A stretch of 64,000 nucleotides of DNA from Candidatus Magasanikbacteria bacterium RIFOXYB2_FULL_38_10. GTDB lineage: Bacteria > Patescibacteriota > Patescibacteriia > Magasanikbacterales > UBA10003. The stretch's first letter is position 1; every line of letters begins with the position of its first letter. Below are positions 6,001 to 56,892 of the stretch, in pieces. The stretch spans positions 24,941 to 88,940 of the forward strand of contig MFQT01000002.1 in assembly GCA_001783145.1 (NCBI GenBank). Reading direction: 5' to 3'. The notes under the pieces were generated by a model, which saw only the letters and a program-made list of their open reading frames with translations, searched no databases and was not told the DNA's origin. The position numbers and the translations under genes are program-made.

Positions 6001-8037
6001 GCTTAAAGTATTTGTATTGGGTGTACCTGTGGGGACCAAATTTTCACCATAACAATTATAAAACTCGGGCGCTTTTTTTAAATTAAGATTTTCTCCAACT
6101 ACGCCTTCAGCCTCGCGGATAAATTTAGAGCACCCTTCATTTTCATTGCCGCATCTTTCAACTGAACGATTAAAATAAATTTTAGGATCACCGGCGCCGG
6201 ATTGCCAATTCCAATCTCCGCCCAAATAAGCGGCTGAAATCGCATAAGAACGGCAACCGGAATTATCCGCCGTACAAATACCTCTATCAATGGTATTGGC
6301 TAAAAAACTCATGGCCTGACCTTGGCTACTGGCATAACCGGTACAAGTATTGAATTGTTCATCGCAACTATCGGCACCCAATTGCCAAAAATTTTTCTCT
6401 CTTAAACAATAGCCCCAAAAATTACATTGTCCGGTTTGTGAATTTTCACCAACACAACTTTGCACATCGGTGCAGGATTTGGCTCTTTGTCCGGGAGTAT
6501 CGGCCGTAGGAGGGTACAGAGCCAAGGAACTGTTAACTTCGGCGGAGCAACGGGCCTTAGGAGCGACAATCAGCCAATTAGGATCAATCAGATGATAATA
6601 TTGACTGCTACTATCATAAAAACCGGCCACCACATCTTTTAAAAATACTTTTTGCCCAAGAGAGACTGCTTTCTGCGCGGCTATTTCCCAGCCCAATGAC
6701 AAAATTCTAAAAAAACGCAATTTAATAAGATTGTCATAACAGTAAGCGTTAGGTTTGCAAGATCCCTTTGGCAAAAGTTCCCAGTCTCCATGCAATTTGC
6801 CCGAAGAGAAATTTAAAGCTTCACCGACAGTTAAGGGGGTTCCCGCTTGGGCTAAAGATAAAATTTCTTGAAAATCGGAATCCAGGGCACCACAATAGGG
6901 GCCGTTGTTGGTAGCGCAATCGGGGGTCAATTCTGTAGCCACATATTGATAATCCCCAATTTCGCCAAAGGTGGGTTTAACAAAATCGGCAAAGGTGGCT
7001 TCGGACGCCTCGCGATTACCCACCACCTGCGCCTGCTCATCATTGGGCGCTGATTTTTTACAAGTCCAAGAACCGTCTTTTACGCCGCAGGCTATCCCGG
7101 TGATTAATTGTCCCACAGAAAGCAAGCCTTTTTTTCTTAATTGCTCTGCCAATTGATCGGAAAGAGTGTTGGTGAACATAGCGGCGGCATCGCCCAAAAC
7201 ACCAGCGATGTTGCCCAGATTTAAATCATCTTTTGTGGCTTTTACTTCTTCGGTTTTTTGTGTTTTTGAATCACTTATAACGCTTTTTGCTTGTTCTTCG
7301 TTAACAGCTACAGGAGCCGTCGCATCACCCCCTACCGGAGAGGCCGTATTTTTCATACTACCATCAGAGTCGGCTTTATCTCGAGCTTTTTGTTCATCTT
7401 CGGCCCGTATTTTATCCAAAGCTTCCAATGTTTCTAAAGATAAAGACAGGCCATTTTGCCCCGGCTGAAAAGACATTCCCACCTGGCTCCAAGCACCGGC
7501 TGTACCCAAATTACTATAGGCATTTTGTATTTCTCTCCAATTACAACGCGGCTGAGGATCCAGGGTGTTGTACATTTTTAATTTTATTCCCAAATTATAG
7601 GCAGGTATGCCGGGATTACACAAATTAATGCCGTATTTTTGTAAAAATTGCGTTTCATCGCCAAAATAGCCAATAGCATCGGCTGCTGCCTGCAAACCGG
7701 CGTTTTCAAAATAACCGGCCGCGTCAGTGTACCACATCGGCCCCTTGTCATAGTTGCCGCTGGCCAGCCAAATGGCTGTGTCCCTGGACATTTTATTGAC
7801 AAAATTCCTAAAAGACTTCATTAAAGCCCTGCCTGCCGCTTGGCCAATATTTACTTTTAAATCTTTACCGATAGCAGTTATTTTAGTCCACAAACCAGTA
7901 GCATCAGCCACGGGATCCGTCACTGTAAACTGCGCTCTAGCCGACCACGGCATTCCCAAACTTCCAATCAATACAAAAAATAAAAAAAATATTGCAATTT
8001 TATTTTTGTGATTTTTTATTTTTTCTTGGCGCGTCAT
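1..8037 (-). CDS. giant secreted cysteine-rich surface protein, N-terminal >2678 aa (3' end of gene lies beyond position 1)
   Basis: ATG at 8037 (revcomp of cat 8035-8037), 7 nt downstream of the stop of the co-oriented upstream gene. Manual translation of the minus frame (codon high coordinate = 0 mod 3) stays open to position 1. No ORF >130 aa exists in any other frame across 8 kb. N-terminus MTRQEKIKNHKNKIAIFFLFFVLIGSLGMPWSARAQ is a signal/anchor. The body is G/N/S/T-rich with recurrent Cys pairs. A jelly-roll CBM4_9-like segment (YFQDFETGTVGS...GGKSLKV...FYLDNVVVKQ) lies at about 4700-5140. Confidence 0.8.
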   Translation of the reverse strand, partial: MTRQEKIKNHKNKIAIFFLFFVLIGSLGMPWSARAQFTVTDPVADATGLWTKITAIGKDLKVNIGQAAGRALMKSFRNFVNKMSRDTAIWLASGNYDKGPMWYTDAAGYFENAGLQAAADAIGYFGDETQFLQKYGINLCNPGIPAYNLGIKLKMYNTLDPQPRCNWREIQNAYSNLGTAGAWSQVGMSFQPGQNGLSLSLETLEALDKIRAEDEQKARDKADSDGSMKNTASPVGGDATAPVAVNEEQAKSVISDSKTQKTEEVKATKDDLNLGNIAGVLGDAAAMFTNTLSDQLAEQLRKKGLLSVGQLITGIACGVKDGSWTCKKSAPNDEQAQVVGNREASEATFADFVKPTFGEIGDYQYVATELTPDCATNNGPYCGALDSDFQEILSLAQAGTPLTVGEALNFSSGKLHGDWELLPKGSCKPNAYCYDNLIKLRFFRILSLGWEIAAQKAVSLGQKVFLKDVVAGFYDSSSQYYHLIDPNWLIVAPKARCSAEVNSSLALYPPTADTPGQRAKSCTDVQSCVGENSQTGQCNFWGYCLREKNFWQLGADSCDEQFNTCTGYASSQGQAMSFLANTIDRGICTADNSGCRSYAISAAYLGGDWNWQSGAGDPKIYFNRSVERCGNENEGCSKFIREAEGVVGENLNLKKAPEFYNCYGENLVPTGTPNTNTLSSSTLAWPVNKSDLYKISNGLTAEQKIQCSRFATVCSAEEKSCELYTPSNGNPTIPGVLTTGDLCPNECVGYETYIEQPITQFSGNANAYFIPANAKSCKLENVGCEEFVNIETQAAGGEQKAYFSQIKSCSKIAAEGDTFYTWEGSDTSGYQLKTYILKKDTRSGHTGEPAYNTGDALTLTFYENICSASTYADKITLGKDFDPDCREFYNRQGEKSYRLYSKTVTVSPSECKNYRKSLSDQISCDATGGAWDSARGICIHSFISLEAKSCPATAVGCRAYKGNAGNNFQTIYFQDFETGTVGSTVSSLDWTGTTATISSEATVVGGKSLKVIGASGFTNILEKNKTISISFWAKSQDASLNLAVQFGTSLAGSNFVSQENRGFNLTNNWAVFTADFNVSWDQEVSSSTLQFGGQGNIFYLDNVVVKQMTDNVYVIKDSWATPSSCDNVNGDPFGSSLGGNSANPLRLAPQAQLGCESYSNRKGDTVAVKFFSSICREEAVGCEELVETFDTETTSATLFNAKCSLLSSPQTYSNQVIDCKDKNGEHKCDVLPGQTFCRFNYVGLGKNLTELGPELHNLNSVAATTDAEGHSYGVNLSSDSESILVPTDRMVYLVNSPAFQCSSDNAGCRALGLIDYSANGAVQASTTVYLKDQPDNYGKILCSQEAEGCNQYTTDQGGSDYFKDPTVFGNRLCEWKDKINGSTGGWVIKGTTDSCYAGTNYKIFKNGDATYNGAVGLCPAAQNGCSEFVDPVGAGTASGNLSGQSYYVINNEKIDRGSCGGSASLQQGCVLFNETAKGDRLWNADATYNLSQQNNYQKVNPIDCGVEGEKTSADNLNCTNDNLDANDANVILKVKRDRVCGEWLACASTMKVLKNGNSVDICTELKNCDKIASAAEVNNSDELLGQCGHWVEDTNKTPAIGQILDLSAYVSANNGAFSVKDFSGYSIYNGRQIADLVASNGLKAINNQPVYNGGGPIAESCRGFASAEIPSEANSSRLNPSLYPDFCSFAKVEYGGSDKAAITKYYLANQLLENKGVCDGGFLENGQSKKSLPCVDVSDCSDDRPANQKPGGITLGASCLTDRKISREFGWNGYCLLKDSTDKCVMWYPLAVPKGGVDLYALNREAGYYPPEGSGKFWCVQAKGNASLPFQDNGDTFGYGSSYKLITRAEPKNTWETSGRGRCFSSNGTEISNINTEEECKNSKSWVPFTADLWKEQTFFLTSVEKDLNFSEVVAMGLTPLSFINGKDYPANELLTFTKQKLNGVSNGDGYYWSGTKLENNGDISLEFFWHNGPDNRTEGSFNFLTQSKCENFYDNTDSNAIAFRVTFDKTTGKLKSMNSKTCDGSTQSGGFKAELDFYLTEVCTDIRQVVQDNPVNPDVQSSVFGFKAKARTDRIWQEGRYILGGDDNGKEMKLPFNQFFTPFGSFDQSQDPKDLTLIDNSKTNWDKLQSWYVAGYWPIWLKSGGATPLNCSPDNGGDCGKAALCSAGPNVNQPCNMADNKNEGNLACNEQVDDGTCKPSASLDKKVCAGETDSGKNLLQMIEPAIDCSNFDSAWCLDRVSSHGFAECIAGVCYGTPLSSLYKWSCSEDGDCIPDNVSCQNISGTCQGGSKNGSYCSVDDDCQGGVVKYLCDDANQIRGLCVGGLNHGLMCGSSKDCPPKTYGDTVGMEVVEQGTCVGISLEQGKTIPQTIGDSGPSTPNIGDHSQPNAAFLRLQELFASSFNTWAWNENKYELLGSGWSNRDKSQGDSGATQTINNLSAAITPHPPKIYSLNPAGNNSFTWGTVNMFSLNFNNGYVDNQDITYNGSSPVVTAAFYAYADNDQMPITRVAIDWGDGSVYESRGWYKNHKPVCESSDEKVCDSNLNKPCNSNADCGSGISCSSPSSPNDRLHFGNSAEACEEGYFTYKHVYECLANNGLSLPVCSANVITNCWDNINSQCHFKPKVQVLDNWGWCNGTCAVVIGGCWDDPAKEDDFRACSIDNKSVIEHWTSFSNKVII

Positions 8038-8044
8038 AGCCAAA

Positions 8045-8779
8045 TTATAACTGTTTAATTAAATCAAGCAAAGCCTGATCGTCTAAACCATCTAAGGTCT
8101 CTTTAGGAATACCTTTTTCTAATAAGCTTTTGCGCAAAGCTTTTAAATCCACATTACTAATATCTAAAGAAAAATCCGATGATTCTGAATTATTAGCCGC
8201 CGTAGATGTGGAAGAGACAAATTCTTTAAAAAAAGCCAACAAATCGTTATCGGAAAATTTTTCCAATTCTTTGGAATCTATTCCATTCTGAATTAAGAAA
8301 TCGCGCAAAACTTTAGGGTCGGGATTAGAACCCAAAAGATTCTGTAAAAGTATCTGATCGGCGGTCGGCAACTCTGAAACGGATATCTCCAAGGAAGAGG
8401 TGGCTGTATTAGCGGCCGCTTGATTTTGCACTAAACTGCCATAACAATCTTGTCCTTTGGGACAATTGGGATCACTGCCGGAATCGGCTTCCGTTTTATC
8501 ATTTAATCCATCGGAATCGGTATCTGTTAAATAAGGGCTGGTTTGATAAATATATAACTCGTCATAATCTTTTAAGCCGTCGGCATCCGTGTCTTTTTTC
8601 TTTAGTTCTTCATTGGCAAAATTTTGATCAAAAGATATTTGTTCGCCGACGGAATGTTGCAAAGCAAAAAGCGCAAAGGGAGTTTTTAAATTGTTGCCCA
8701 TTTGCCTAAAACCTAAATAAACAACAAAGACCGCCAAAACAACCAAACCCAAAAAGGCCAGTTTTTCTTTTCTTGTCAT
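8045..8779 (-). CDS. membrane-anchored calcium-binding protein with thrombospondin type-3-like DxDxDG repeats
   Basis: The ORF-track start at 8833 is TTG. Internal ATG at 8779 is preceded by GGAGAG and gives MTRKEKLAFLGLVVLAVFVVYLG, a TM anchor. Repeats DTDADGLKDYDE and DTDSDGLNDKTEADSGSD lie at about 8468-8593. The stop is 7 nt from the giant gene start. Confidence 0.6.
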   Translation of the reverse strand: MTRKEKLAFLGLVVLAVFVVYLGFRQMGNNLKTPFALFALQHSVGEQISFDQNFANEELKKKDTDADGLKDYDELYIYQTSPYLTDTDSDGLNDKTEADSGSDPNCPKGQDCYGSLVQNQAAANTATSSLEISVSELPTADQILLQNLLGSNPDPKVLRDFLIQNGIDSKELEKFSDNDLLAFFKEFVSSTSTAANNSESSDFSLDISNVDLKALRKSLLEKGIPKETLDGLDDQALLDLIKQL

Positions 8780-9790: not shown

Positions 9791-10384
9791 TTAAGTGATT
9801 TTTAATCCCCCCTGTCTTAACACTTCTATCTTGCCATTTCTAATTCGCGCAACAGTAGAAGGCGCGCGACGCTTTAAAACTCCTCCATCTACTGTATAAA
9901 TACAGTCGGTTGATAACTTTTTAAAACTCTTTTTTAAATCTGTCACAGAATAAATTTCTTTTGCTCCGGAAATATTAGCCGAAGTAGAAACAATGGGCCG
10001 GCCCAATCTTTGGGCAAGAGTACGCGCTATTTTATTACTGGAAATTCTTATGGCTACAGTATTATCTTTGGCAACGACACTCTTGGATAAACCCACCTCT
10101 TTTTTATTTTTTAAAACCAAAGTTAAAGCTCCCGGCCAATATTTTTTAGCTAGAATTTCCTCCTGTTTGTTCAAAATCACCCATTTTTTAACCATAGCCA
10201 AACTTCCGGCAATTAAAGGCAAAGTCTTGGCTTGGGGCCTTTGTTTTATTTTAAAAATTAAATCCAGTGCTTCCTGATTGGTAGAATCGCAACCAAGACC
10301 ATAAGCGGTTTCCGTGGGATAAATTATCACCCCTCCTTTTTTTAAAAAATCAACCGCCTCTTTTAATTTTTTAACAATAATCAT
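9791..10384 (-). CDS. tsaC: L-threonylcarbamoyladenylate synthase (YrdC/Sua5 family)
   Basis: PTETAYGLGCD motif; about 197 aa, YrdC-size. Confidence 0.8.
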   Translation of the reverse strand: MIIVKKLKEAVDFLKKGGVIIYPTETAYGLGCDSTNQEALDLIFKIKQRPQAKTLPLIAGSLAMVKKWVILNKQEEILAKKYWPGALTLVLKNKKEVGLSKSVVAKDNTVAIRISSNKIARTLAQRLGRPIVSTSANISGAKEIYSVTDLKKSFKKLSTDCIYTVDGGVLKRRAPSTVARIRNGKIEVLRQGGLKIT

Positions 10385-21465: not shown

Positions 21466-21551
21466 TGGTGCGCGAGAGAGGACTTGAACCTCCACGGGGT
21501 CGCCCCCACAGCCACCTCAAGGCTGCGTGTATACCATTTCACCACTCGCGC
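21466..21551 (-). tRNA. tRNA-Leu(GAG), class II, CCA encoded
   Basis: GCGCGAG acceptor, anticodon loop TTGAGGT, long variable arm GGGGgcgaCCCC, T-loop TTCAAGT. Confidence 0.85.
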
Positions 21552-21599
21552 GCAGGTTGTAATTCTTTAAGCCTATAATAACAAAAAAATAAATTCTGG

Positions 21600-21631
21600 T
21601 CAATAAAAACAACCGGCGTTGGTGCCGGTTG
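21600..21631 (-). terminator. rho-independent terminator after GC-rich gene 21660..22268
   Basis: CAACCGGCgttggtGCCGGTTG, an 8-bp stem followed on the minus strand by TTTTTATT. Confidence 0.55.
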
Positions 21632-21659
21632 TAAGGTGACTGATTAAACAATCAAGGTA

Positions 21660-22268
21660 CTAAAGAGAAAATCGGGAGAACCACCGCAAAAAAGCCCGGC
21701 TGGAAAAAACATAACTGGCATACTGCCCTCTTTTTTCCTTAGCGCTAGGTTGACCGGACTTTAAAACATGAACCATGCAGAGAACCCGCCAATTGGGGTG
21801 CAATTCCTTAAGATACTGTTTGGCTCTGACAATCCACTGCATTTGTTCAACAATATTCAACCTATAAGCCGTGGCGGCGGCACAGGGCGTATGAGCGTAA
21901 ATCAAAATCAACGGCCGGGCGCCATTGCCATCAAGATTCTTAAAATGAACACCTCCTTCAATACTATCAAGCAAAGTAAGATGTTGGCGCAAATGAGGCT
22001 TAATCAAAGGAGATTCGGGATGCAAAAGCAACCCGCCGCCGTTCAAGGACGGATCATGAAAAACGCATTCATCCATAGCCACATCACCGGCAGTCTGAGC
22101 CAGATTATAGTGGTGCAAAAGCAATTCCAGTTTGCGTGATCCATCCGCACAGTCAACAATCACCATGCGTCCGGGATCTTGACTTTTAACAACGTCAAAA
22201 TTCCGCAAAATGACATCTTGGCGCAGTTGTTCAACCAAACGCAGATCAACTAAAGACGTTTCTGCCAT
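21660..22268 (-). CDS. hypothetical protein encoded in a GC-rich (about 45%) patch
   Basis: ATG at 22268 with GGAG 8 nt upstream; own terminator; composition unlike neighbours. VIVDCADGS...ILIYAHTPCAAATAY, no family recognised. Confidence 0.5.
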   Translation of the reverse strand: MAETSLVDLRLVEQLRQDVILRNFDVVKSQDPGRMVIVDCADGSRKLELLLHHYNLAQTAGDVAMDECVFHDPSLNGGGLLLHPESPLIKPHLRQHLTLLDSIEGGVHFKNLDGNGARPLILIYAHTPCAAATAYRLNIVEQMQWIVRAKQYLKELHPNWRVLCMVHVLKSGQPSAKEKRGQYASYVFSSRAFLRWFSRFSL

Positions 22269-22395
22269 TTTTAAGACTCCAATTAAAAGGTAAAAGGAAC
22301 AACATTCAACAACAGAACAATATTATGATATAAAATTGCTTTTTAGTCAAGAGTTTTAAACTTTAAAAGACCCTGTTAAAAACAGAGTCTTTTAA

Positions 22396-22469
22396 TGGGC
22401 AGTATAGGATTCGAACCTATGACCTAACGGATGTAAACCGTTCGCTCTAACCAACTGAGCTAACTGCCC
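22396..22469 (-). tRNA. tRNA-Val(UAC), CCA not encoded
   Basis: GGGCAGT acceptor, anticodon loop TTTACAT, T-loop TTCGAAT. Confidence 0.8.
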
Positions 22470-32508: not shown

Positions 32509-34638
32509 TTATTCCGGCCAATTTTCAATCATTAAAAATTCCTTTTGTTTAGACGGAGACATTTGATATACAGCTTCTGTGACATACGGAACAAAAGGAT
32601 GTAATAATTTGATACCAATTAACCAAACGCGGAAAAGTGTTTGCTTGGCCGCTTTTTTTTCTTCTTCACTTACCTCGGCAGACAGCCGCGGTTTTATTTC
32701 TTCTAAATATTTATCGCAAAATTCATGCCAAAAAAATTGATAAGCCTCTTCCGCTGCCAAATGAAAATCAAAATCGTCTAAATTTTTCGTCACTTTTTTT
32801 GTCACCTCGGCTAATCTTTCCAAAATTGCTTTGTCTTGTTCATTAACAACATTATTTTTCTCTGCTGGCACAAAATTTTCTCCCAAATTCATCATTACAA
32901 ACCTAGAAGCATTCCAAATTTTATTGGCAAAATTGCGATGCGCACGGATTTTATCTTCGGAAATAACAACATCATTACCAGCGGAAACTCCAAACACCAA
33001 AGCCATACGCAAAGCATCGGCTCCGTAATTTTCTACTACGCCCAAAGGATCAATTACATTGCCCTTAGACTTAGACATTTTTTGTCTGTCTTTGTCACGC
33101 ACAAGTCCGTGCAGATAAACATTTTTAAACGGCACTTTGCCAGTCACATAAATTCCCAGCATTATCATTCTGGCTACCCAAAAAAACAAGATATCCCAAC
33201 CAGTTTCCATTACGGCTGTTGGATAAAACCTTTTAAAATCGCCAGTGGTTTGCAGAGTGGCAAACGGCCACTGACCAGAAGAAAACCAAGTATCAAAAAC
33301 ATCAGTTTCTTGCACCCAGCCCTCCCCTTTCGGCGCTTCTTCACCCGCATAAACTTCTTCACCCTTGTACCACACCGGAATTTGAATCCCCCAAACAATC
33401 TGACGGGAAACATTCCAATCGCGGATATTTTCCAGCCAATGAAAAAATATTTTTTCAAATTTTTCCGTGACAAATTTTACCTCGCCGTTTCTAACCGCCT
33501 CCATGGCTTTTTCTGCCAAAGGTTTCATTTTAATAAACCACTGAGGCAAAACCCTAGGCTCCAAAACATTGCCGCATTTATAGCAGGTGGCCACACTATG
33601 TTTGTAATTAGCATCAATTTTCACCATCAAGCCGGCTTTTTCCAAATCCTGCGCAATCACTTTTCTAGCCTCGGCAATCTTTAAACCATGATATTTTTTA
33701 GCCGCCTCATTATCTGGAAAATGCTTTAACAAATTCAATTTGCCATATTGATCAATCACTTCTATGGGTCCGGGAATTTCATTTTTGTGCCTCTGCCAAA
33801 TTTCATAATCAATTGGATCGTGGGCCGGCGTCACTTTTACCGCGCCCGTGCCAAATGTGGGATCTACGGCTTCATCGGCAATAACTTTTATTTTAGTTTT
33901 GCCAATTAAAGTTTCTATCTCCACCTCTTGGCCAATATATTCTTTATAGCGTTCATCATTAGGATGCACGGCAATAGCCGTATCACCAAACTTAGTTTCC
34001 AACCGCACCGTGGCCAAAGTAATCGGCCCATATTTTATATAATACAAAGGATCTTCTTTTTCTACATGCTTCACTTCCAAATCAGATAAAGTAGTTTGAT
34101 GTTTCACACACCAGTTGATAATTCTTTCTCCGCGATAAGCCAGGCCATCATCGTAAAGCTTTTTAAAAGTTTGATTGACGATTTTGACAATTTCCGGGTC
34201 CAGAGCAAAAGTTTCTTTTGTCCAATCGCAAGACGCACCAAGTCGGCGCAATTGCCCTTCCATTACCGTTTTGTTGGTTTGCGTAAAATCCCAAATTTCT
34301 TTGTATAATTCATCTCTGGGAATAGTAAACCAATTACGACCATCCTTTTCCAATTTTTTTTGATAAACAACTTGCGTTTCAAAACCGGCGTGATCGGCCC
34401 CGGGCAACCATAAAGTCGGTTCGCCTTTCATCCTATGATAGCGCACCATAATATCTTCCAGTGTCACAAAAACCGCGTGACCCACGTGCAAAGAACCATT
34501 GGAATTAGGCGGTGGCATTATAATACAAAACGGCTCGCCCTTGGCCTCTTTAGACGAGGCAAATTTTCCGCTCGCCTCCCATTGTTTATAAATTTCCTTT
34601 TCAAATTCCTCCGGTTTAAAAACTTTTGGCAATTCCAT
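32509..34638 (-). CDS. valS: valine--tRNA ligase (short form, 709 aa)
   Basis: PPPNSNGSLHVGHA HIGH motif, LPGADHAGFETQ, KMSKSKGN. Confidence 0.8.
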   Translation of the reverse strand: MELPKVFKPEEFEKEIYKQWEASGKFASSKEAKGEPFCIIMPPPNSNGSLHVGHAVFVTLEDIMVRYHRMKGEPTLWLPGADHAGFETQVVYQKKLEKDGRNWFTIPRDELYKEIWDFTQTNKTVMEGQLRRLGASCDWTKETFALDPEIVKIVNQTFKKLYDDGLAYRGERIINWCVKHQTTLSDLEVKHVEKEDPLYYIKYGPITLATVRLETKFGDTAIAVHPNDERYKEYIGQEVEIETLIGKTKIKVIADEAVDPTFGTGAVKVTPAHDPIDYEIWQRHKNEIPGPIEVIDQYGKLNLLKHFPDNEAAKKYHGLKIAEARKVIAQDLEKAGLMVKIDANYKHSVATCYKCGNVLEPRVLPQWFIKMKPLAEKAMEAVRNGEVKFVTEKFEKIFFHWLENIRDWNVSRQIVWGIQIPVWYKGEEVYAGEEAPKGEGWVQETDVFDTWFSSGQWPFATLQTTGDFKRFYPTAVMETGWDILFFWVARMIMLGIYVTGKVPFKNVYLHGLVRDKDRQKMSKSKGNVIDPLGVVENYGADALRMALVFGVSAGNDVVISEDKIRAHRNFANKIWNASRFVMMNLGENFVPAEKNNVVNEQDKAILERLAEVTKKVTKNLDDFDFHLAAEEAYQFFWHEFCDKYLEEIKPRLSAEVSEEEKKAAKQTLFRVWLIGIKLLHPFVPYVTEAVYQMSPSKQKEFLMIENWPE

Positions 34639-36785: not shown

Positions 36786-37718
36786 CTATTGAACAAGCAT
36801 TTTTTTGGCCTGCAATTCTTTTTTAGAAAGCCATAAAAATACACCCACCACTATAAAAGTTATTACGGGCGAAAACCAACTGGGAATATGCGCTTGCAAA
36901 CTTTCGGCGAGCATTATTGCGCCTAAAACGCCAATGGAATACATAGCGCCATTTTTTAAATAACGATATTTTTTAACAGTTTTAATGCCATGTACGGTAA
37001 AATATCGAACCACCACGGCTCCTAAACCATTACCAAGTAAAATTAAAGGAATGGAAACCGTGAAAGCAAACGCGCCTAGCACTCCATCAATAGAAAAAGT
37101 GGTATCGATCACTTCCAAATATAAAATTTTGCTGATATCCGAAAGATGCCCCGTGGTTAACTCCTTCTCTTTTTCTTCGGCATTCTTTTTAAATCCATTA
37201 GTAATAAAAAAAGCTGTGGAACCGACCACCGCGCCTAAAGCAATAAACGGGTTGATCTTGATGGTCACCCAAACCACGGTTAACAAAATAACAGAAGCGA
37301 CGGCGTAAAACCAAAATGATAAACGGTGATGAATATATTTTTCCAAAAAGAAGGCATATTCCTTTGTTTCCAAAAACAACCAATAAAAAAACAAATAAAC
37401 CAAATACATACCGCCGCCAGCTAAAAGTATAGGGGTCTGTTTTTCAATTATTTTAATTACCGATTGATCAGAACTAAAAGTAGCCCAAAAAGATTGCACC
37501 AAATTTAATCCCGGACTGGAAAAATAAATAATTAAAAGCGGCATGAAGCCGCGCACCAAAAAAACGGCAATGATGATGCCGTAAAACAAAAACCAATGGC
37601 GCGCCCTCTTAGACATGGTGGAAAGAACATCGGCATTCACCACGGCGTTGTCAATACTGGAAATAACCTCAAACAAAGTTAGGCCCAACACTATTAAAAT
37701 GATTTCGGAAAAATTCAT
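36786..37718 (-). CDS. TerC/DUF475-family integral membrane protein
   Basis: Duplicated SIDNAVVNADVL and FSIDGVLGAFAFT motifs. The track ORF (to 37793) overruns a tRNA; the ATG is at 37718. Confidence 0.5.
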   Translation of the reverse strand: MNFSEIILIVLGLTLFEVISSIDNAVVNADVLSTMSKRARHWFLFYGIIIAVFLVRGFMPLLIIYFSSPGLNLVQSFWATFSSDQSVIKIIEKQTPILLAGGGMYLVYLFFYWLFLETKEYAFFLEKYIHHRLSFWFYAVASVILLTVVWVTIKINPFIALGAVVGSTAFFITNGFKKNAEEKEKELTTGHLSDISKILYLEVIDTTFSIDGVLGAFAFTVSIPLILLGNGLGAVVVRYFTVHGIKTVKKYRYLKNGAMYSIGVLGAIMLAESLQAHIPSWFSPVITFIVVGVFLWLSKKELQAKKMLVQ

Positions 37719-37742: not shown

Positions 37743-37818
37743 TGGTGCGCCTGGATGGATTTGAACCATCGACCCTGCGATTATAAGTCGCATGCTCTAA
37801 CCACTGAGCTACAGGCGC
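37743..37818 (-). tRNA. Ile-type tRNA with genomically encoded UAU anticodon (tRNA-Ile2-like), CCA encoded
   Basis: GCGCCTGTAGCTCAGTGGTTAGAGCATGCGACTTATAATCGCAGGGTCGATGGTTCAAATCCATCCAGGCGCACCA. Near-identical scaffold to bacterial ileX (LAU), but position 34 is T, not C. Confidence 0.75.
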
Positions 37819-37822
37819 AAAA

Positions 37823-38482
37823 TTAATGAATTGAACTCAAAACTTTAATTTGCATCAAAATTTTCTCTTTCAATGTTACTCGATTAAACATGATTGTGCA
37901 AGTACCATGGCCAAATCCTCCTTTATGATTAATGCGCTTACTAATATTTTTTTTAATATAAGGCTTAATAAATTGATCTGATGATATTTTAAGATATTCA
38001 GACCAAAAATCAATTTCTTCCTTAATATTCATGTCGGGGTAAAGTTGTAAACCAATCCGTAAATCAGTTCTAGAAATTTTGTGAATATCAGTTAGCCATT
38101 TAATAAAAAATTTTAAAATATTAGGATCCGTATTAGCTAATGCCACTCTAGACCAGTCTTGCTTTGATCCCTCGCCCCAATATAATCCCAAACCTATTAA
38201 AAATAGTTCTCTTTTATTTAAAGGTAATAATAATTCTTTTTCTCTACAAAATATTTCTTCCATTCTCTTTTTTCTTTTTTCAAACATGGTATTTCTGAAT
38301 TTTTCTATTCTATCCAAATTTTTATTTCGCAGCTCATCTATCCTCTTTTTAGACAAAGGGAGAAAATAAAGCCAGGAACTTAAAGTACTTTTAGAAACTT
38401 TAATTTCTCTTTTAATTTGAGAATAACTCAGTCCTTTTTTTCTTAAAGATAAAGCTTTTTCTCTCAATAAAATTTTGGACAT
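37823..38482 (-). CDS. HTH-domain protein with possible LAGLIDADG-like endonuclease core
   Basis: N-terminal LSYSQIKREIKVSKSTLSSW HTH; central FLIGLGLYWGEGSK resembles a single LAGLIDADG motif. Adjacent to a tRNA gene. Confidence 0.3.
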   Translation of the reverse strand: MSKILLREKALSLRKKGLSYSQIKREIKVSKSTLSSWLYFLPLSKKRIDELRNKNLDRIEKFRNTMFEKRKKRMEEIFCREKELLLPLNKRELFLIGLGLYWGEGSKQDWSRVALANTDPNILKFFIKWLTDIHKISRTDLRIGLQLYPDMNIKEEIDFWSEYLKISSDQFIKPYIKKNISKRINHKGGFGHGTCTIMFNRVTLKEKILMQIKVLSSIH

Positions 38483-38708
38483 ACAAAATAGGTTTGTAGG
38501 AATTTATTTCATAAGTACATTATAACATATGTAAATATCTAATATCAAATAAATAGAGATCCCCTATCTGAATGGCCGTGGTCATAAATACGCGATTATG
38601 ATTATTATGATTTGAGTAATTTAATAATTTGTAAAGAAACCGAACACGCCCCATGACTGACCATGTTTTTGGACTTTTGTCAAGATGCTTGCTAAAATAG
38701 CCTTATCT

Positions 38709-42448: not shown

Positions 42449-43417
42449 ATGAAATACCATATCACTCCTGAAGAAAAAGGCACCCGTTTGGACAAATTCT
42501 TAGTGGAAAAAATGCCCCACCTTACCCGCACCCAAATACAAAAAGCGGTCAAGGGCGGGCAGGTTTTGGTTAACGATAAAAAACCCACGCCGCATCATTT
42601 TTTAAAAGGCGGCGATATTGTTGACACTGAAGAAATGAAAATTGACACCACATCCTCCGATTCCCAAAAAATTTCTTCAACCGGTAAAACAAAAACCAAA
42701 ACAAAATTTGTCTTTCCCAAATCTTTGGAGCCAAAAATAATTTTTGAAGATGAAAATTTTTTGGTCATTAACAAACCTTCCGGTATTTTAGTGCACGCGC
42801 GCGATGAAAAACTTTTGGATCAAGAACCAACCTTGGTGCACTGGCTAATCAAAAATTTTCCCGCCATTAAAAAAGTGGGCGAAAATTTAATTTTACGCCC
42901 GGGTATTGTGCACCGCCTGGACAAAGAAGCTTCGGGAGTTATGATAGTTGCTAAAACCAATCCGGCTTTTCATTTTCTTAAGGAACAATTCAAAACCCGC
43001 CAGGTAAAAAAAGAGTATCGGGCTTGGGTTTATGGCAAACTTCCCAAAACCTGGGATGTTATTGCTTTCCCTATTGGCCGCTCTCGTGATGAAGGCAAGA
43101 TGGCCGCCCGTCCGGTTTCCACCACTAAAGAAAAAATTCAGCCGGGCAAAGAGGCTGTTACAGAATATGAAGTCTTGCAAGAGTTTCCTCACAAAAGTTT
43201 AGTTAAAATAATGCCCAAAACCGGCCGCACCCATCAAATTCGTGTGCATTTTTACGCTCTACACCATCCTCTTTTGGGTGACCCTTTATATGAATCTAAA
43301 AGTTACAAAAAAATCCCTACCGAACGCTTAATGTTGCATGCTCATAAACTTACTTTAAAAAATTTAGCAGGCGAGGAGCAAACTTTTACCGCTCCCTTAC
43401 CTAAAGAATTTATATGA
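42449..43417 (+). CDS. rluD: RluA-family 23S rRNA pseudouridine synthase (RluD-like, S4 N-domain)
   Basis: HRLDKEASGVMIVAKT catalytic motif and S4-like N-terminus. Confidence 0.8.
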   Translation: MKYHITPEEKGTRLDKFLVEKMPHLTRTQIQKAVKGGQVLVNDKKPTPHHFLKGGDIVDTEEMKIDTTSSDSQKISSTGKTKTKTKFVFPKSLEPKIIFEDENFLVINKPSGILVHARDEKLLDQEPTLVHWLIKNFPAIKKVGENLILRPGIVHRLDKEASGVMIVAKTNPAFHFLKEQFKTRQVKKEYRAWVYGKLPKTWDVIAFPIGRSRDEGKMAARPVSTTKEKIQPGKEAVTEYEVLQEFPHKSLVKIMPKTGRTHQIRVHFYALHHPLLGDPLYESKSYKKIPTERLMLHAHKLTLKNLAGEEQTFTAPLPKEFI

Positions 43418-43959
43418 TCATCACAATTTCCGGAATCCCTGGTTCAGGCAAAAGCACCATTGGCAAAATCCTGGCCCAAAAATTAGGTTATAAATATCTT
43501 TCCATGGGCGATTTGCGCGGTGAGATTGCCTTAAAACATAATCTAACTATTGATGAACTCAACAAAATTGGCGAAACAGAAAGTTGGACAGACAAAGAAA
43601 CCGATGAATATCAAAAAAAATTAGGCGCCACTTCTGACAATTTAATAGTAGAAGGACGCCTGGGTTTTCATTTTATCCCCCATTCTTTTAAGATTTTTTT
43701 AAATGTAGGCACTAAAGAGGCGGCCCAACGTGCCTGGCAAAGCAGGGACAGCCGTCCGGACGAAAAAAGGCCAAAAAATTTGGCCGAGGCGGAAGACAAC
43801 CTGCTTTTAAGGCTGGCTAGCGATAAAAAACGCTATCTAAAATATTACCAAATAGATTATACTGAACCAACCAATTTTGACTTATTTTTAGATACCACCA
43901 ATTTACCCATTCCGGAGGTGGTTAAGATAATTCTTGACAAAATTCAGGCTTTAAGGTAG
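43414..43959 (+). CDS. cmk: cytidylate kinase-like (archaeal-type CMP kinase) P-loop kinase
   Basis: ISGIPGSGKSTIGK P-loop; 181 aa; 4-nt overlap with rluD. Confidence 0.65.
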   Translation: MIITISGIPGSGKSTIGKILAQKLGYKYLSMGDLRGEIALKHNLTIDELNKIGETESWTDKETDEYQKKLGATSDNLIVEGRLGFHFIPHSFKIFLNVGTKEAAQRAWQSRDSRPDEKRPKNLAEAEDNLLLRLASDKKRYLKYYQIDYTEPTNFDLFLDTTNLPIPEVVKIILDKIQALR

Positions 43960-43993
43960 AATTTAACTACTAAATTAAAGACGAATAATATTT

Positions 43994-44350
43994 ATGGCAA
44001 CTAACATTAAACAGACAGAGAATTTGTCCGAAGTAATTAAAAAATTAAGACCGGGCCAAACTGTCAAAGTCTACCACAAAATTAAAGAAGTTAACTCCAA
44101 AGGCGAGCTAAAAGAGCGCTTACAAATGTTTGAAGGAACAATTCTTCTTCACAAACACGGGCAAGAACCGGGCGCCACCATTACAATTAGAAAAATTTCC
44201 GAAGGCGTGGGGGTAGAAAAGATTTTTCCTATCCATTCTCCCATTATTTCCAAAATTGAAATAATTAAAGAAATTAAATCCAGACGCGCCAAAATGTACT
44301 TCTTGCGCAAACCTCACAAAAAATTAAGAGAAAAGAAAAAGGTTAAATAA
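43994..44350 (+). CDS. rplS: 50S ribosomal protein L19
   Basis: VKVYHKIKE...RAKMYFLR bL19 signature. Confidence 0.85.
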   Translation: MATNIKQTENLSEVIKKLRPGQTVKVYHKIKEVNSKGELKERLQMFEGTILLHKHGQEPGATITIRKISEGVGVEKIFPIHSPIISKIEIIKEIKSRRAKMYFLRKPHKKLREKKKVK

Positions 44351-56458: not shown

Positions 56459-56484
56459 AAAACGCCCCTTGCGGGGCGTTTTTG
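56459..56484. terminator. bidirectional terminator shared by rnj (+) and rnpB (-)
   Basis: AAAACGCCCCttgcGGGGCGTTTTT. Confidence 0.7.
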
Positions 56485-56892
56485 CTAAACTAAGCTGTAA
56501 GCCGAATTTTGTCCCCCCTTGCGGGGTAACGGCCATCTCTCTGGGCTAGGCATCACTGCCAAGCTCAAGCTTTCGAATATGAAGTTGCACCAGGTAGGGT
56601 TTTCCACCGCGCCAAGTTGCCTTGGCGTAAGAGGCGTAGCAGAGACGTTGTTTAAACCTTTAGAGTTTAAACCACGACACACCGCCTCACTTTTCACCTT
56701 TCACTGCCTTGTGGCAGTTAGTATTGTCTCTGTGGCACTGATCCGTCAGGCGAGTTTATTCCAAGTTGCCTTGGGTTATCCCGCCAAATTGCCCACCCGT
56801 TAGGTGGTACCACGACGCGTTTACACGCGGGTGTTCGGACTTTCCTCCCTTTTTACAGGGCGGCCGTCCACTTAATTTAGCAGATTAAATAT
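56483..56892 (-). ncRNA. rnpB: RNase P RNA, bacterial type A
   Basis: On the minus strand, P4 5' strand GGAGGAAAGUCCGAACA and 3' strand ACAAAAUUCGGCUUA, with compensatory changes relative to E. coli. GUGAAAGGUGAAAAGUG (P10.1/P11). P1 UGCUAAAUUAAG pairs with CUUAGUUUAGCA. GC-rich and ORF-free. Confidence 0.85.

Follow-up and report, generated by a model that had tools for sequence, protein, structure and literature searches.

A tRNA-Ile gene with an encoded UAU anticodon in a Magasanikbacteria genome, and its relatives across the CPR

Bacterial tRNA-Ile2 is encoded with a CAU anticodon, is modified to lysidine by TilS, and reads the codon AUA. TilS is generally regarded as essential and nearly universal among bacteria, and one survey found it in 98% of genomes (PMC6063277). 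A tRNA-Ile gene whose anticodon is encoded as UAU therefore raises the question of how AUA is read in the organism that carries it, and whether lysidine is needed there at all. Here, we describe such a gene in a 64,000-nt stretch (“the window”) from the genome of a member of the Magasanikbacteria, an ultra-small groundwater bacterium of the CPR (Patescibacteria). Encoded tRNA-Ile(UAU) has been reported from Mycoplasma mobile, M. suis, Bifidobacterium, Neorickettsia, and a few redundant cases (PMC3575796). The tRNAscan-SE 2.0 survey found it in 17 bacterial genomes, naming the M. mobile form tRNA-Ile3(UAU) (PMC8450103), and a 2026 preprint refers to encoded UAU tRNAs as “rare cases”. The literature thus agrees with the rarity that a first, sequence-only reading of the window had claimed for this anticodon. 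Our literature search found no paper tying CPR/Patescibacteria to lysidine, tilS, or UAU. The features discussed below are collected in Table 1.

Table 1. Features of the window, with positions counted from its first letter
Feature	Position	Strand	Basis and remarks
tRNA-Ile(UAU) gene, 76 nt, CCA encoded	37743..37818	-	5' end at 37818; ARAGORN, Rfam RF00005, cloverleaf fold
Anticodon U34 A35 U36	37783..37785	-	plus strand ATA; position 34 is window position 37785; sequence and ARAGORN
TTTT spacer, 4 nt, ORF stop codon to tRNA nucleotide 1	37819..37822	-	sequence, distance analysis
219-aa protein gene	37823..38482	-	NCBI locus tag UT86_C0002G0112
Promoter-like TTGATA, 18 nt, TG-extended TATAAT (candidate)	38519..38548	-	11/12 matches; ~37 nt upstream of the 219-aa ORF
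DUF475/TerC-family membrane protein gene	36786..37700	-	NCBIfam PRK14013.1-2, 402 bits; Pfam DUF475
RluA-family pseudouridine synthase, cytidylate kinase, rplS (L19)	42449..44350	+	order conserved in three related loci (L081-L083)
tRNA-Val(UAC) and tRNA-Leu(GAG)	21466..22469	-	ARAGORN; arrays in relatives
TsaC/Sua5-type L-threonylcarbamoyladenylate synthase (t6A37 pathway)	9791..10384	-	NCBIfam TIGR00057, 165 bits (cut-off 123)

Identity of the tRNA gene

On the minus strand of the window, ARAGORN calls a tRNA-Ile at 37743-37818 with anticodon TAT, and the Rfam tRNA model RF00005 places the same sequence in the tRNA family, scoring 78 bits where the gathering score is 29 (E=1.9e-15). The tRNA strand folds into a clean cloverleaf (−29.4 kcal/mol, z=−3.2). 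Standard numbering fits tRNA-Ile(UAU), with an anticodon loop consisting of C32 U33 U34 A35 U36 A37 A38. The proposal made from the letters alone, that this is an Ile-type tRNA with T34 and hence an encoded UAU anticodon, is therefore borne out, including its anticodon register.

The same proposal described the scaffold as nearly identical to that of tRNA-Ile2. The closest E. coli matches of the 76-nt sequence are tRNA-Ile genes of the ileX/ileY type, with 84% identity; the scaffold is thus Ile2-like, but this level of identity is too low for “nearly identical”. Against reference sequences, 65 of the 76 positions are shared with ileX, 56 with ileT(GAU), 55 with the elongator Met tRNA (metT), and 50 with the initiator Met tRNA. 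The Ile2-type body is present: the D arm, the anticodon-stem pairs G30-C40 and A31-U39, the acceptor pairs C4-G69 and C5-G68, and A73 are shared with tRNA-Ile2 of E. coli, and AUA is the codon read by both. In contrast to tRNA-Ile2, where the CAT anticodon supplies the C34 that TilS converts to lysidine, position 34 is T here and in all 79 homologues described below. The tRNA is consequently no TilS substrate, and it can pair with AUA without any modification.

E. coli IleRS recognizes A73, C4-G69, U12-A23, C29-G41, A37, and A38. All of these can be read from the sequence of this tRNA, and isoleucine charging is therefore expected. The modification t6A occurs on ANN-reading tRNAs, and the window encodes a TsaC/Sua5-type enzyme (Table 1); A37 of tRNA-Ile(UAU) would thus be an expected substrate of the t6A pathway.

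Conservation and genomic setting

To what extent is the gene a peculiarity of one genome? We assembled 83 CPR loci (3 + 80) through the neighboring protein gene, a selection that is blind to the anticodon. tRNA-Ile(UAU) is present in 79 of them (3/3 and 76/80), and a CAU (CAT) anticodon in none of the 83. Among ~75 distinct copies of the tRNA, compensatory changes occur in 20 of the 21 helix pairs, and the C-U-U-A-U-A loop is nearly invariant, the sole exception being a C33 in one locus (L090). These comparisons indicate that the tRNA is conserved over many CPR lineages and is no one-off quirk. By its U34 A35 U36 anticodon, it belongs to the tRNA-Ile(UAU) group as a new and very widespread member. 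A sequence-pattern scan of genome contigs matched only ~27–30 CPR species.

The position of the gene is also shared. In 13 tRNA-selected CPR genomes, ftsH lies 33–224 nt upstream of tRNA-Ile(UAU), and directly downstream of ftsH is usually where the gene is found in tRNA-selected genomes. The nearest GTDB genome, a Magasanikbacteria MAG (L063), shares synteny with the window (ValS 63%, CCA enzyme 65%). In most CPR relatives, a block consisting of genes for an RluA-family pseudouridine synthase, cytidylate kinase, and rplS follows tRNA-Ile(UAU)/tRNA-Val. Here, the genes for the CCA-adding enzyme and PilB stand between the tRNA and these three genes, which, judging by gene order, are a remnant of that block. 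Likewise, tRNA-Val(UAC) and tRNA-Leu(GAG), which belong to the tRNA array that adjoins the Ile(UAU) block in relatives, are 15 kb away in the window. The DUF475/TerC gene begins 25–45 nt past the 3' end of the tRNA on the same strand, with gene calls disagreeing on its start codon. Elsewhere in the window, an apparent 7-kb gene desert (positions 1-8000) consists of a single giant ORF on the minus strand, which extends past the window end.

Two readings would deny this gene the status of a functional, chromosomal tRNA gene. One is that it is an artefact: either position 34 was misread or misassembled, or the sequence is a tRNA pseudogene. The 76-nt sequence, with its T34, is the same in six separate metagenome assemblies made from different samples with different pipelines (ENA, JGI, Logan), which rules out a sequencing error at that position. 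In addition, related loci yield 155 tRNA-Ile(TAT) calls, the cloverleaf is intact, and its helices covary. We have dropped the artefact reading as scarcely conceivable. The other takes the tRNA for a passenger on a phage or mobile element, or for a gene recently gained by horizontal transfer, rather than a core gene. Phages often carry tRNA genes, the neighboring ORF has a weak homing-endonuclease-like motif, and a few matches outside the CPR in the pattern scan resemble mobile or mis-binned contigs. The surroundings argue against this origin, since they are those of housekeeping genes (ValS, TyrS, ArgS, the CCA enzyme, UvrA, rplS, and RNase P RNA), GC content is uniform at 37–43%, and the ftsH/rplS synteny is kept across the CPR. 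A scan of 2.9 million viral contigs gave only 11 pattern matches, all with at least 17 mismatches. Given the viral scan and the housekeeping context, a mobile origin is very improbable, and we likewise set it aside in favor of a CPR-inherited gene.

The helix-turn-helix gene upstream of the tRNA

Immediately upstream of the tRNA lies an ORF of 219 codons whose product is an exact match to a protein of Candidatus Magasanikbacteria bacterium GW2011_GWC2 (UT86_C0002G0112). In this protein, an N-terminal helix-turn-helix (HTH) is joined to a C-terminal alpha/beta domain, so far uncharacterised, in which the motifs GLxLYWGEGxK, SNTDP, and INHKGGFGHGTC occur. The 4-nt spacer is too short to hold a promoter for the tRNA alone. 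The candidate promoter for the ORF and the tRNA (Table 1) is a match to the consensus, of which the region holds as many as expected from shuffled sequence. From this match and the spacing, the two genes are probably co-transcribed; the tRNA would then be freed from the transcript by RNase P and 3' processing. In most relatives the arrangement is tighter still: the ORF of this family ends at the tRNA's own U8-A9-G10, which serves as its UAG stop codon. With such an overlap, nature provides a compact example in which mRNA and tRNA compete for the same transcript.

The linkage between the two genes is asymmetric. The tRNA is found beside the protein gene in 79 of the 83 protein-selected loci, whereas the protein gene is found beside the tRNA in 5 of ~20 tRNA-selected loci. 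The protein is thus nearly always with the tRNA, and the tRNA with the protein in about a quarter of cases, which looks like site-specific insertion. We had considered the protein as an obligate partner of the tRNA, but most tRNA-selected loci are without it, and the idea was dropped. Paralogues lie directly beside tRNA-Val and tRNA-Gly genes, and HTH proteins of this family form >5,000 clusters at 50% identity. From these patterns of occurrence, the best reading of the 219-aa gene is a site-specific insertion of the homing type, or one that was formerly mobile, directly 5' of the tRNA. It could equally be a vertically inherited functional gene, given that family members are ~55% identical across deep lineages.

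If the gene is an insertion, the closest parallels are the free-standing or intron-borne LAGLIDADG endonucleases, which likewise insert precisely beside a conserved RNA gene and occur patchily. A family profile of the 219-aa protein has a lone, weak match to I-DmoI (E=0.013). In this alignment, GLaLYWGEGSK is paired with GLYVAEGDKT, so that a single LAGLIDADG-like helix (GLxLYWGEGxK) is present and its invariant Glu falls on the second I-DmoI motif. The 219-aa protein differs from the I-DmoI type in having an HTH added at its N-terminus as well as a conserved His/Cys loop, and ~55% identity across deep lineages is unusual for a selfish gene. Pfam gave no LAGLIDADG match, Foldseek did not find the LAGLIDADG fold (alpha-beta-beta-alpha-beta-beta-alpha core), and BLAST against a true LAGLIDADG_3 protein in a related locus (L083) was not significant. 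The initial idea that the protein is a LAGLIDADG homing endonuclease was therefore not confirmed. A 202-aa ORF beside tRNA-Leu(GAG) in the window was examined as a possible paralogue of the 219-aa gene and rejected.

Reading of AUA

A check of codon usage, suggested by the sequence-only reading, shows that AUA accounts for 11.5 of every 1000 codons in the window and occurs in every one of the 33 genes checked. At positions where the window has AUA, orthologues have an isoleucine codon of the ATT/ATC type in 24 cases, AUA in 13, valine in 10, and methionine in none. By this comparison, AUA is read as isoleucine and is heavily used. We assign a probability of about 80% to the reading that combines a functional, chromosomal, CPR-inherited tRNA-Ile(UAU) that reads AUA free of lysidine, co-transcription of ORF and tRNA, and an origin of the 219-aa gene by insertion. 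AUA would be decoded by direct pairing of U34 with A, with no need for lysidine. As in M. mobile, it would fall to the ribosome and to a U34 that is either unmodified or carries a special modification to discriminate against AUG.

The search for a TilS-dependent decoder alongside covered the 64-kb window of this ~1-Mb genome, together with related loci. Searches for tRNAs and protein families in the window turned up neither tilS nor IleRS, nor any Ile2 tRNA of the CAT type; IleRS was likewise absent from the related loci. Across 1.08 Mb of these loci, tblastn with TilS queries (E. coli, Aquifex, and a consensus, the query having been validated against PDB 1NI5) found no TilS-like sequence. Nor was a TilS-like gene found upstream of ftsH in 39 loci; a gene of ~380 aa at that position, considered as a divergent TilS, turned out to be ribosomal protein S1 or other genes. 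This is the position that tilS occupies in Southlakia, a CPR bacterium of the class Saccharimonadia, where it adjoins ftsH and is scored as essential in two of three Tn-seq columns. Since tilS is apparently essential there, its loss is not CPR-wide. K04075 is absent from the listed rows of two parcubacterial annotation tables (for Minisyncoccus, ~46% of rows). Parcubacterial relatives are annotated with a type-2 IleRS (DUF5915); UAU-accepting enzymes are either IleRS1 with Arg replacing Trp in the Zn domain or IleRS2, which is present in nearly half of all bacteria and is not diagnostic (2026 preprint).

Two alternatives to this reading were weighed. The tRNA may be a redundant auxiliary, with tilS and tRNA-Ile2(CAU) encoded elsewhere and the UAU tRNA adding capacity for a frequent codon. 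Such coexistence is known from Lactobacillus casei, Cyanothece, and Ferrimonas (PMC3575796), and the essentiality of tilS in Southlakia and the 64-kb scope fit this view as well. The tRNA is, however, conserved over deep CPR lineages under strong purifying selection, a pattern that accompanies loss of tilS in Bifidobacterium and Neorickettsia (PMC3575796). CPR genomes are highly reduced, making redundancy unlikely, and the results of the TilS and K04075 searches above also count against it. We consider redundancy improbable, and tRNA-Ile(UAU) is probably the only decoder of AUA, with tilS and tRNA-Ile2(CAU) lost. Alternatively, U34 may be enzymatically modified, to pseudouridine or otherwise, to prevent reading of AUG, with the 219-aa protein or the syntenic RluA-family synthase as the modification or maturation factor. 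Modified U34 is known from eukaryotic tRNA-Ile(UAU), as pseudouridine, and from mutant haloarchaeal tRNA-Ile (PMC3895270). Linkage of protein to tRNA is near 100%, invariant His, Cys, and Glu motifs in the 219-aa protein suggest an active or metal site, and most relatives have an RluA-family gene after the tRNA block. Against this, most tRNA-selected CPR genomes, the nearest relative among them, carry this tRNA but not the 219-aa gene, so the protein is not generally required, and its paralogues adjoin tRNA-Val and tRNA-Gly. For the RluA-family candidate, the best-scoring assignment is a generic RluD-like rRNA enzyme with an S4 domain, and M. mobile copes with an unmodified U34 (PMC3575796). 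A dedicated modification is thus rather less probable even than redundancy, and lysidine-free reading by the encoded U34 remains our preferred account.

Whether this account extends to a large part of the CPR is, in our judgment, an evenly balanced matter. The extended claim is that Parcubacteria/Paceibacteria and ABY1 (e.g., Magasanikbacteria) abandoned the TilS-lysidine system for an ftsH-anchored tRNA-Ile(UAU), and that an undescribed HTH family inserts precisely 5' of tRNA genes, with the ORF ending in U8-A9-G10 (UAG). If so, lysidine-free decoding of AUA would be a common bacterial solution that goes beyond a handful of exceptions, and translation of the ORF, processing by RNase P, and possibly tmRNA rescue would be coupled. 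If tilS is missing from the lineages that carry the tRNA, a sizeable part of bacterial diversity would solve the AUA/AUG problem in another way. Loss of tilS would also bear on how the ribosome or IleRS2 handles U34, on the modification of U34, and on the validity for the CPR of TilS-targeted antibacterials and of “universal” marker sets (TIGR02432).

Among known systems, M. mobile (Taniguchi et al. 2013, PMC3575796) offers the closest likeness: a bacterial tRNA with an encoded UAU and lysidine-free reading of AUA, in a reduced genome in which AUA is a common codon. The absence of tilS, the unmodified U34, and the adaptation of IleRS1 at Arg865 are experimental findings in M. mobile, whereas the CPR case is made from sequence. 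Bifidobacterium and Neorickettsia, which lack tilS and have a eukaryote-type IleRS2, resemble the CPR in that the UAU tRNA is clade-wide and that parcubacterial relatives also have a type-2 IleRS; they belong to other phyla, and their lack of tilS is established where that of the CPR lineages is presumed. L. casei, Cyanothece PCC 7424, and Ferrimonas balearica also encode a UAU tRNA-Ile, as sporadic extras at the strain or species level alongside tilS, whereas the CPR gene is ancient and conserved. The CPR gene also differs from that of M. mobile in extending over a far larger radiation, in its anchoring downstream of ftsH, and, in the present genome, in the conserved HTH gene that lies 4 nt ahead of the tRNA.

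The tRNA-Ile(UAU) gene and the AUA codon

The sequence-only reading described an Ile-type tRNA with a UAU anticodon, and the ARAGORN call of tRNA-Ile(TAT) bears this out, with an unambiguous anticodon register. The gene comprises 76 nt in standard numbering with an encoded CCA (GCGCCUGUAGCUCAGUGGUUAGAGCAUGCGACUUAUAAUCGCAGGGUCGAUGGUUCAAAUCCAUCCAGGCGCACCA), and its anticodon loop reads C32 U33 U34 A35 U36 A37 A38. The Rfam tRNA model scores it at 78 bits (gathering score 29; E = 1.9e-15), and the cloverleaf folds at −29.4 kcal/mol (z = −3.2). T34 is genuine: six contigs that were assembled separately, from different samples and with different pipelines (ENA, JGI, Logan), all contain precisely this 76-mer, which rules out a read-level error at the position. 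Within the DUF475/TerC gene, which follows the tRNA, lie two terminator-like hairpins with T-runs, ~120–160 nt into its annotated 5′ part; Rfam finds no riboswitch there.

Coordinates of features in the window and in comparison loci (L-numbers)
Feature	Position	Strand	Remark
tRNA-Ile(TAT)	37743-37818	-	ARAGORN
T34 of this tRNA	37785	
219-aa ORF	37823-38482	-	stop codon 4 nt before tRNA nucleotide 1
ORF-tRNA junction	37819-37825		TAA, 4 nt
Terminator-like hairpins	37538-37582	-	
ValS	32509-34638	-	
Giant ORF	1-8058	-	leaves window at left end
RNase P RNA	56482-56879		
tRNA region of closest species representative	L063:5952-6134		
tRNA with altered loop	L090:3657-3732		
ORFs overlapping the tRNA (examples)	L083:10001-10737; L082:10001-10739		
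Distant paralogue	L045:6036-6746		
Distant paralogue	L029:3593-4333		
Inverted tRNA	L162:3499-3572		
Adjoining TAT/CAT tRNAs	L030:2145-2265; L066:2329-2483		

When the tRNA is compared with all complete E. coli genomes, its closest matches are ileX/ileY-type tRNA-Ile genes, i.e., those of tRNA-Ile2 (84% identity over 76 nt). Relative to reference sequences of individual genes, it has 65 of 76 positions in common with ileX, 56 with ileT(GAU), 55 with elongator tRNA-Met and 50 with initiator tRNA-Met. It also carries C4-G69, C5-G68, U12-A23, C29-G41, A37, A38 and A73, which are established identity elements for E. coli IleRS; those in the acceptor stem also serve as identity elements for TilS, the enzyme that turns C34 of tRNA-Ile2 into lysidine. 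Given the E. coli matches and these identity positions, the earlier description of an Ile2 body with T34 was correct, but "nearly identical" overstated an identity of 84%.

AUA usage was also checked. The codon occurs at 11.5 per 1000 codons across 33 confident window genes (14,875 codons), accounts for 15% of Ile codons and is found in all 33 genes; this frequency falls in the "high usage" class of PMC12514573. Where AUA codons of the window face codons of orthologues in other species of the Candidate Phyla Radiation (CPR), the partner is ATT or ATC (Ile) in 24 cases, ATA in 13, a Val codon in 10 and Met in none; in the reverse direction, Met is the partner in 3 of 93. The alignments and the heavy use show that AUA is isoleucine and requires an efficient decoder. 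From established knowledge, AUA would be read directly by U34-A pairing, and IleRS would charge the tRNA, recognising the stem pairs together with A35, U36, A37/A38 and A73. TsaC is encoded in the window, and A37 probably carries the t6A modification. Misreading of AUG by U34 would be avoided either by an unmodified U34 combined with ribosomal discrimination, as in Mycoplasma mobile, or by modification of U34.

Conservation and gene order in the CPR

The host is a CPR bacterium of the ABY1 group. NCBI protein UT86_C0002G0112 of "Candidatus Magasanikbacteria bacterium GW2011_GWC2_4..." matches the 219-aa helix-turn-helix ORF located 5′ of the tRNA at 100% identity. Housekeeping genes (ArgS, TyrS, ValS, GroEL, NusA, RF2, YidC, KsgA, TsaC, UvrA, L19, RNase J and RNase P RNA) and an even GC content of 37–43% mark the window as ordinary chromosome. 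The left end resembles a 7-kb gene desert of higher GC (43%) because ORFs crossing the window edge go unlisted; it is actually one giant ORF of >2,680 codons. ValS has only 709 aa, covering positions 2–696 of the 860-position NCBIfam model, and lacks the usual C-terminal extension; its length is the same in all independent gene calls.

Conservation of the tRNA was assessed in loci selected by protein, without regard to any tRNA: three homologues of the 219-aa protein on long contigs and the best 80 metagenome loci by protein profile. ARAGORN places a tRNA-Ile(TAT) directly downstream of the 219-aa family gene in 3/3 and 76/80 of these loci, and a CAT tRNA in this position in none. Three of the four exceptions stop at a contig edge; the fourth (L147) has ~1 kb of downstream sequence without a tRNA. 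The 79 tRNA genes represent 74 distinct sequences. When these are aligned with the window copy, compensatory double changes are seen in 20 of 21 cloverleaf pairs, and the loop C-U-U-A-U-A-(A/C/U) is almost invariant; the genes are functional and under purifying selection. The exception in the loop is L090, where C replaces U at position 33 (loop CCTATAA).

A scan of GTDB, with one genome per species and an intentionally restrictive anticodon-arm pattern, recovered 74 loci, of which ~27–30 belong to the CPR: Kuenen-, Magasanik-, Portnoy-, Azam-, Jorgensen-, Yanofsky- and Colwellbacteria, Parcubacteria, and bins labelled Saccharibacteria. The pattern matches only 7 of the 75 anticodon-blind sequences (the window copy and 6 of the 74 others), so the scan sees a small fraction of such genes and no prevalence can be derived from it.

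In 13 of these tRNA-selected CPR genomes, ftsH ends 33–224 nt upstream of the tRNA on the same strand (L009, L013, L029, L033, L034, L040, L045, L062, L064, L067, L075, L078, L079); among all loci collected, ftsH adjoins the tRNA locus in 68. The usual CPR order is (rpsA) – ftsH – [219-aa gene] – tRNA-Ile(UAU) – tRNA-Val(GAC) – RluA-family synthase – gmk/cmk – rplS – tRNA-Leu(GAG) – Val(UAC) – Phe – Gly. The ftsH-tRNA-rplS block is split in the window: the 64 kb contain no ftsH, the CCA-adding enzyme and pilB stand between the tRNA and the RluA-family synthase, cmk and rplS, and a distance of 15 kb separates the tRNA from tRNA-Val(UAC) and tRNA-Leu(GAG). Among the GTDB species representatives recovered by the scan, the closest is L063, a Magasanikbacteria MAG, which shares the order DHH – tRNA-Ile(UAU) – CCA enzyme with the window (protein identities: ValS 63%, CCA enzyme 65%, DHH 59%). 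Of the two genes on either side of the window's tRNA, the 219-aa gene and the DUF475/TerC gene, neither is present in L063.

The 219-aa protein gene and its junction with the tRNA

The 219-aa ORF of the window has its own TAA. Pattern matching places a strong candidate promoter (TTGATA, 18 nt, TG-TATAAT; 11/12 matches to the pattern) ~37 nt upstream of the ORF start. With this site and a spacing of 4 nt, the simplest reading is that ORF and tRNA are co-transcribed; the spacing suggests that the promoter of the 219-aa gene would also serve the tRNA, which RNase P would then release. In ~49 of 85 distinct CPR loci (range L081–L163), the ORF lacks its own stop codon and ends at U8-A9-G10 of the tRNA, read as UAG. 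The overlap is exactly 10 nt (−10 nt), such that the acceptor stem codes for the final two residues (e.g., ...R-L or ...R-V). RNase P cleavage in these species would strip the stop codon, leaving a non-stop mRNA. L162 has its tRNA in the opposite orientation to the 219-aa gene, yet only 2 nt away from it.

The family has 2,802 homologues by word-indexed search, all CPR among those with an organism named, and 5,529 representatives of 50%-identity clusters at E ≤ 1e-3. Members are ~220 aa long and ~55% identical, with an N-terminal helix-turn-helix and the invariant motifs GLxLYWGEGxK, SNTDP, FFxxW, LQLYxDM, KPYIK and INHKGGFGHGTC. The C-terminal domain has no match in Pfam, NCBIfam or PHROG. 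The AlphaFold model is confident (pLDDT 89.8), and Foldseek finds no credible relative for it in the PDB. The family profile matches only the region of the second LAGLIDADG motif of I-DmoI, weakly (E = 0.013).

Linkage between gene and tRNA is asymmetric. The protein almost always has a tRNA-Ile(UAU) behind it, and the gene is present in only five tRNA-selected CPR loci (L035, L039, L044, L057, L065); at least 15 lack it, including L063 and the 13 loci with ftsH directly before the tRNA. Two distant paralogues run into other tRNAs, tRNA-Val(GAC) in L045 (34% identity) and tRNA-Gly(GCC) in L029 (29% identity), and an association with tRNA genes appears to extend across the whole family. The precise junction, patchy presence and weak LAGLIDADG-like motif lead us to hypothesize that genes of this family insert site-specifically, directly 5′ of tRNA genes. 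The insertion could be of homing type, now possibly domesticated. That the protein is instead an obligate cofactor of tRNA-Ile(UAU) is less likely than insertion. The protein is highly conserved in sequence, which speaks for a selected function.

TilS and other tRNA-Ile(UAU) systems

The 64-kb window contains no TilS, IleRS or CAT-type tRNA. No TilS-like sequence was found in 1.08 Mb (window and loci) with three queries: one validated against PDB 1NI5 (973 bits), a consensus N-domain, and an Aquifex TilS sequence that was not itself validated. The CPR as a whole is not tilS-free, since the cultivated Saccharibacterium Southlakia epibionticum has tilS (SEML1_0730) directly upstream of ftsH, and two of three Tn-seq columns rate this tilS as essential (PMC10633639 supplement). 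In UAU-tRNA lineages, the upstream neighbor of ftsH is rpsA or another gene, in no case one for a PP-loop protein, both in 12 inspected loci and in 39 with ≥600 nt of upstream sequence visible. K04075 is absent from the first 603 genes in the annotation table of Minisyncoccus archaeiphilus and from the listed genes of the parcubacterium PMX_810. Both tables list a type-2 IleRS (IleRS2) with DUF5915; because nearly half of bacteria have IleRS2 (2026 preprint), this alone is not diagnostic of tilS loss. The one PMX_810 gene labelled "lysidine synthase" is in truth an N-acetyl-sugar amidotransferase.

In Bifidobacterium and Neorickettsia, a clade-wide UAU tRNA accompanies tilS loss and IleRS2 (PMC3575796). 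By analogy, the window genome probably lacks tilS (probability roughly 0.7). The broader proposal, that TilS was lost over a large part of the CPR, together with a tRNA-targeting gene family, is in our view an even bet. tilS is linked to ftsH in Southlakia (Saccharimonadia) and many other bacteria, and tRNA-Ile(UAU) is linked to ftsH in tRNA-selected CPR; thus, both alternative determinants of AUA decoding adjoin ftsH.

Earlier descriptions of tRNA-Ile(UAU) cover M. mobile, M. suis, Bifidobacterium, Neorickettsia, Nanoarchaeum and Korarchaeum, along with sporadic redundant cases (PMC3575796, PMC8450103). At the sequence level, the window tRNA is of this kind; unlike tRNA-Ile2, it lacks the defining C34. 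What is new is the host clade, how broadly and for how long the gene has been conserved there, its anchoring next to ftsH, and the ORF-tRNA junction involving an uncharacterised protein family. We found no paper in the open-access library searched connecting the CPR with lysidine, tilS or a UAU tRNA.

MAGs of Bacilli, RF39, Erysipelotrichaceae and Mollicutes carry another tRNA-Ile(TAT) scaffold, unrelated to the first (GGTCCATTAGCGCAGTGGTTAGAGC...GACTTATAATC...; L008, L011, L014, L016, L018, L020, L028, L031, L036-L038, L041, L043, L048, L050-L053, L056, L058, L061, L069, L072, L074, L076, L077, L080). Bins labelled E. coli, Alistipes, Bacteroides, Hallerella and Faecalibacterium (H07xxx-L1_cleanbin series) contain identical copies; the contigs concerned probably belong to a single lineage of gut Bacilli and were mis-binned. 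In an Omnitrophica MAG (L030) and in Nostoc (L066), a TAT-anticodon Ile-like tRNA adjoins a CAT-type Ile2-like tRNA, possibly reflecting duplication followed by a C34T change, i.e., coexistence with the lysidine system.
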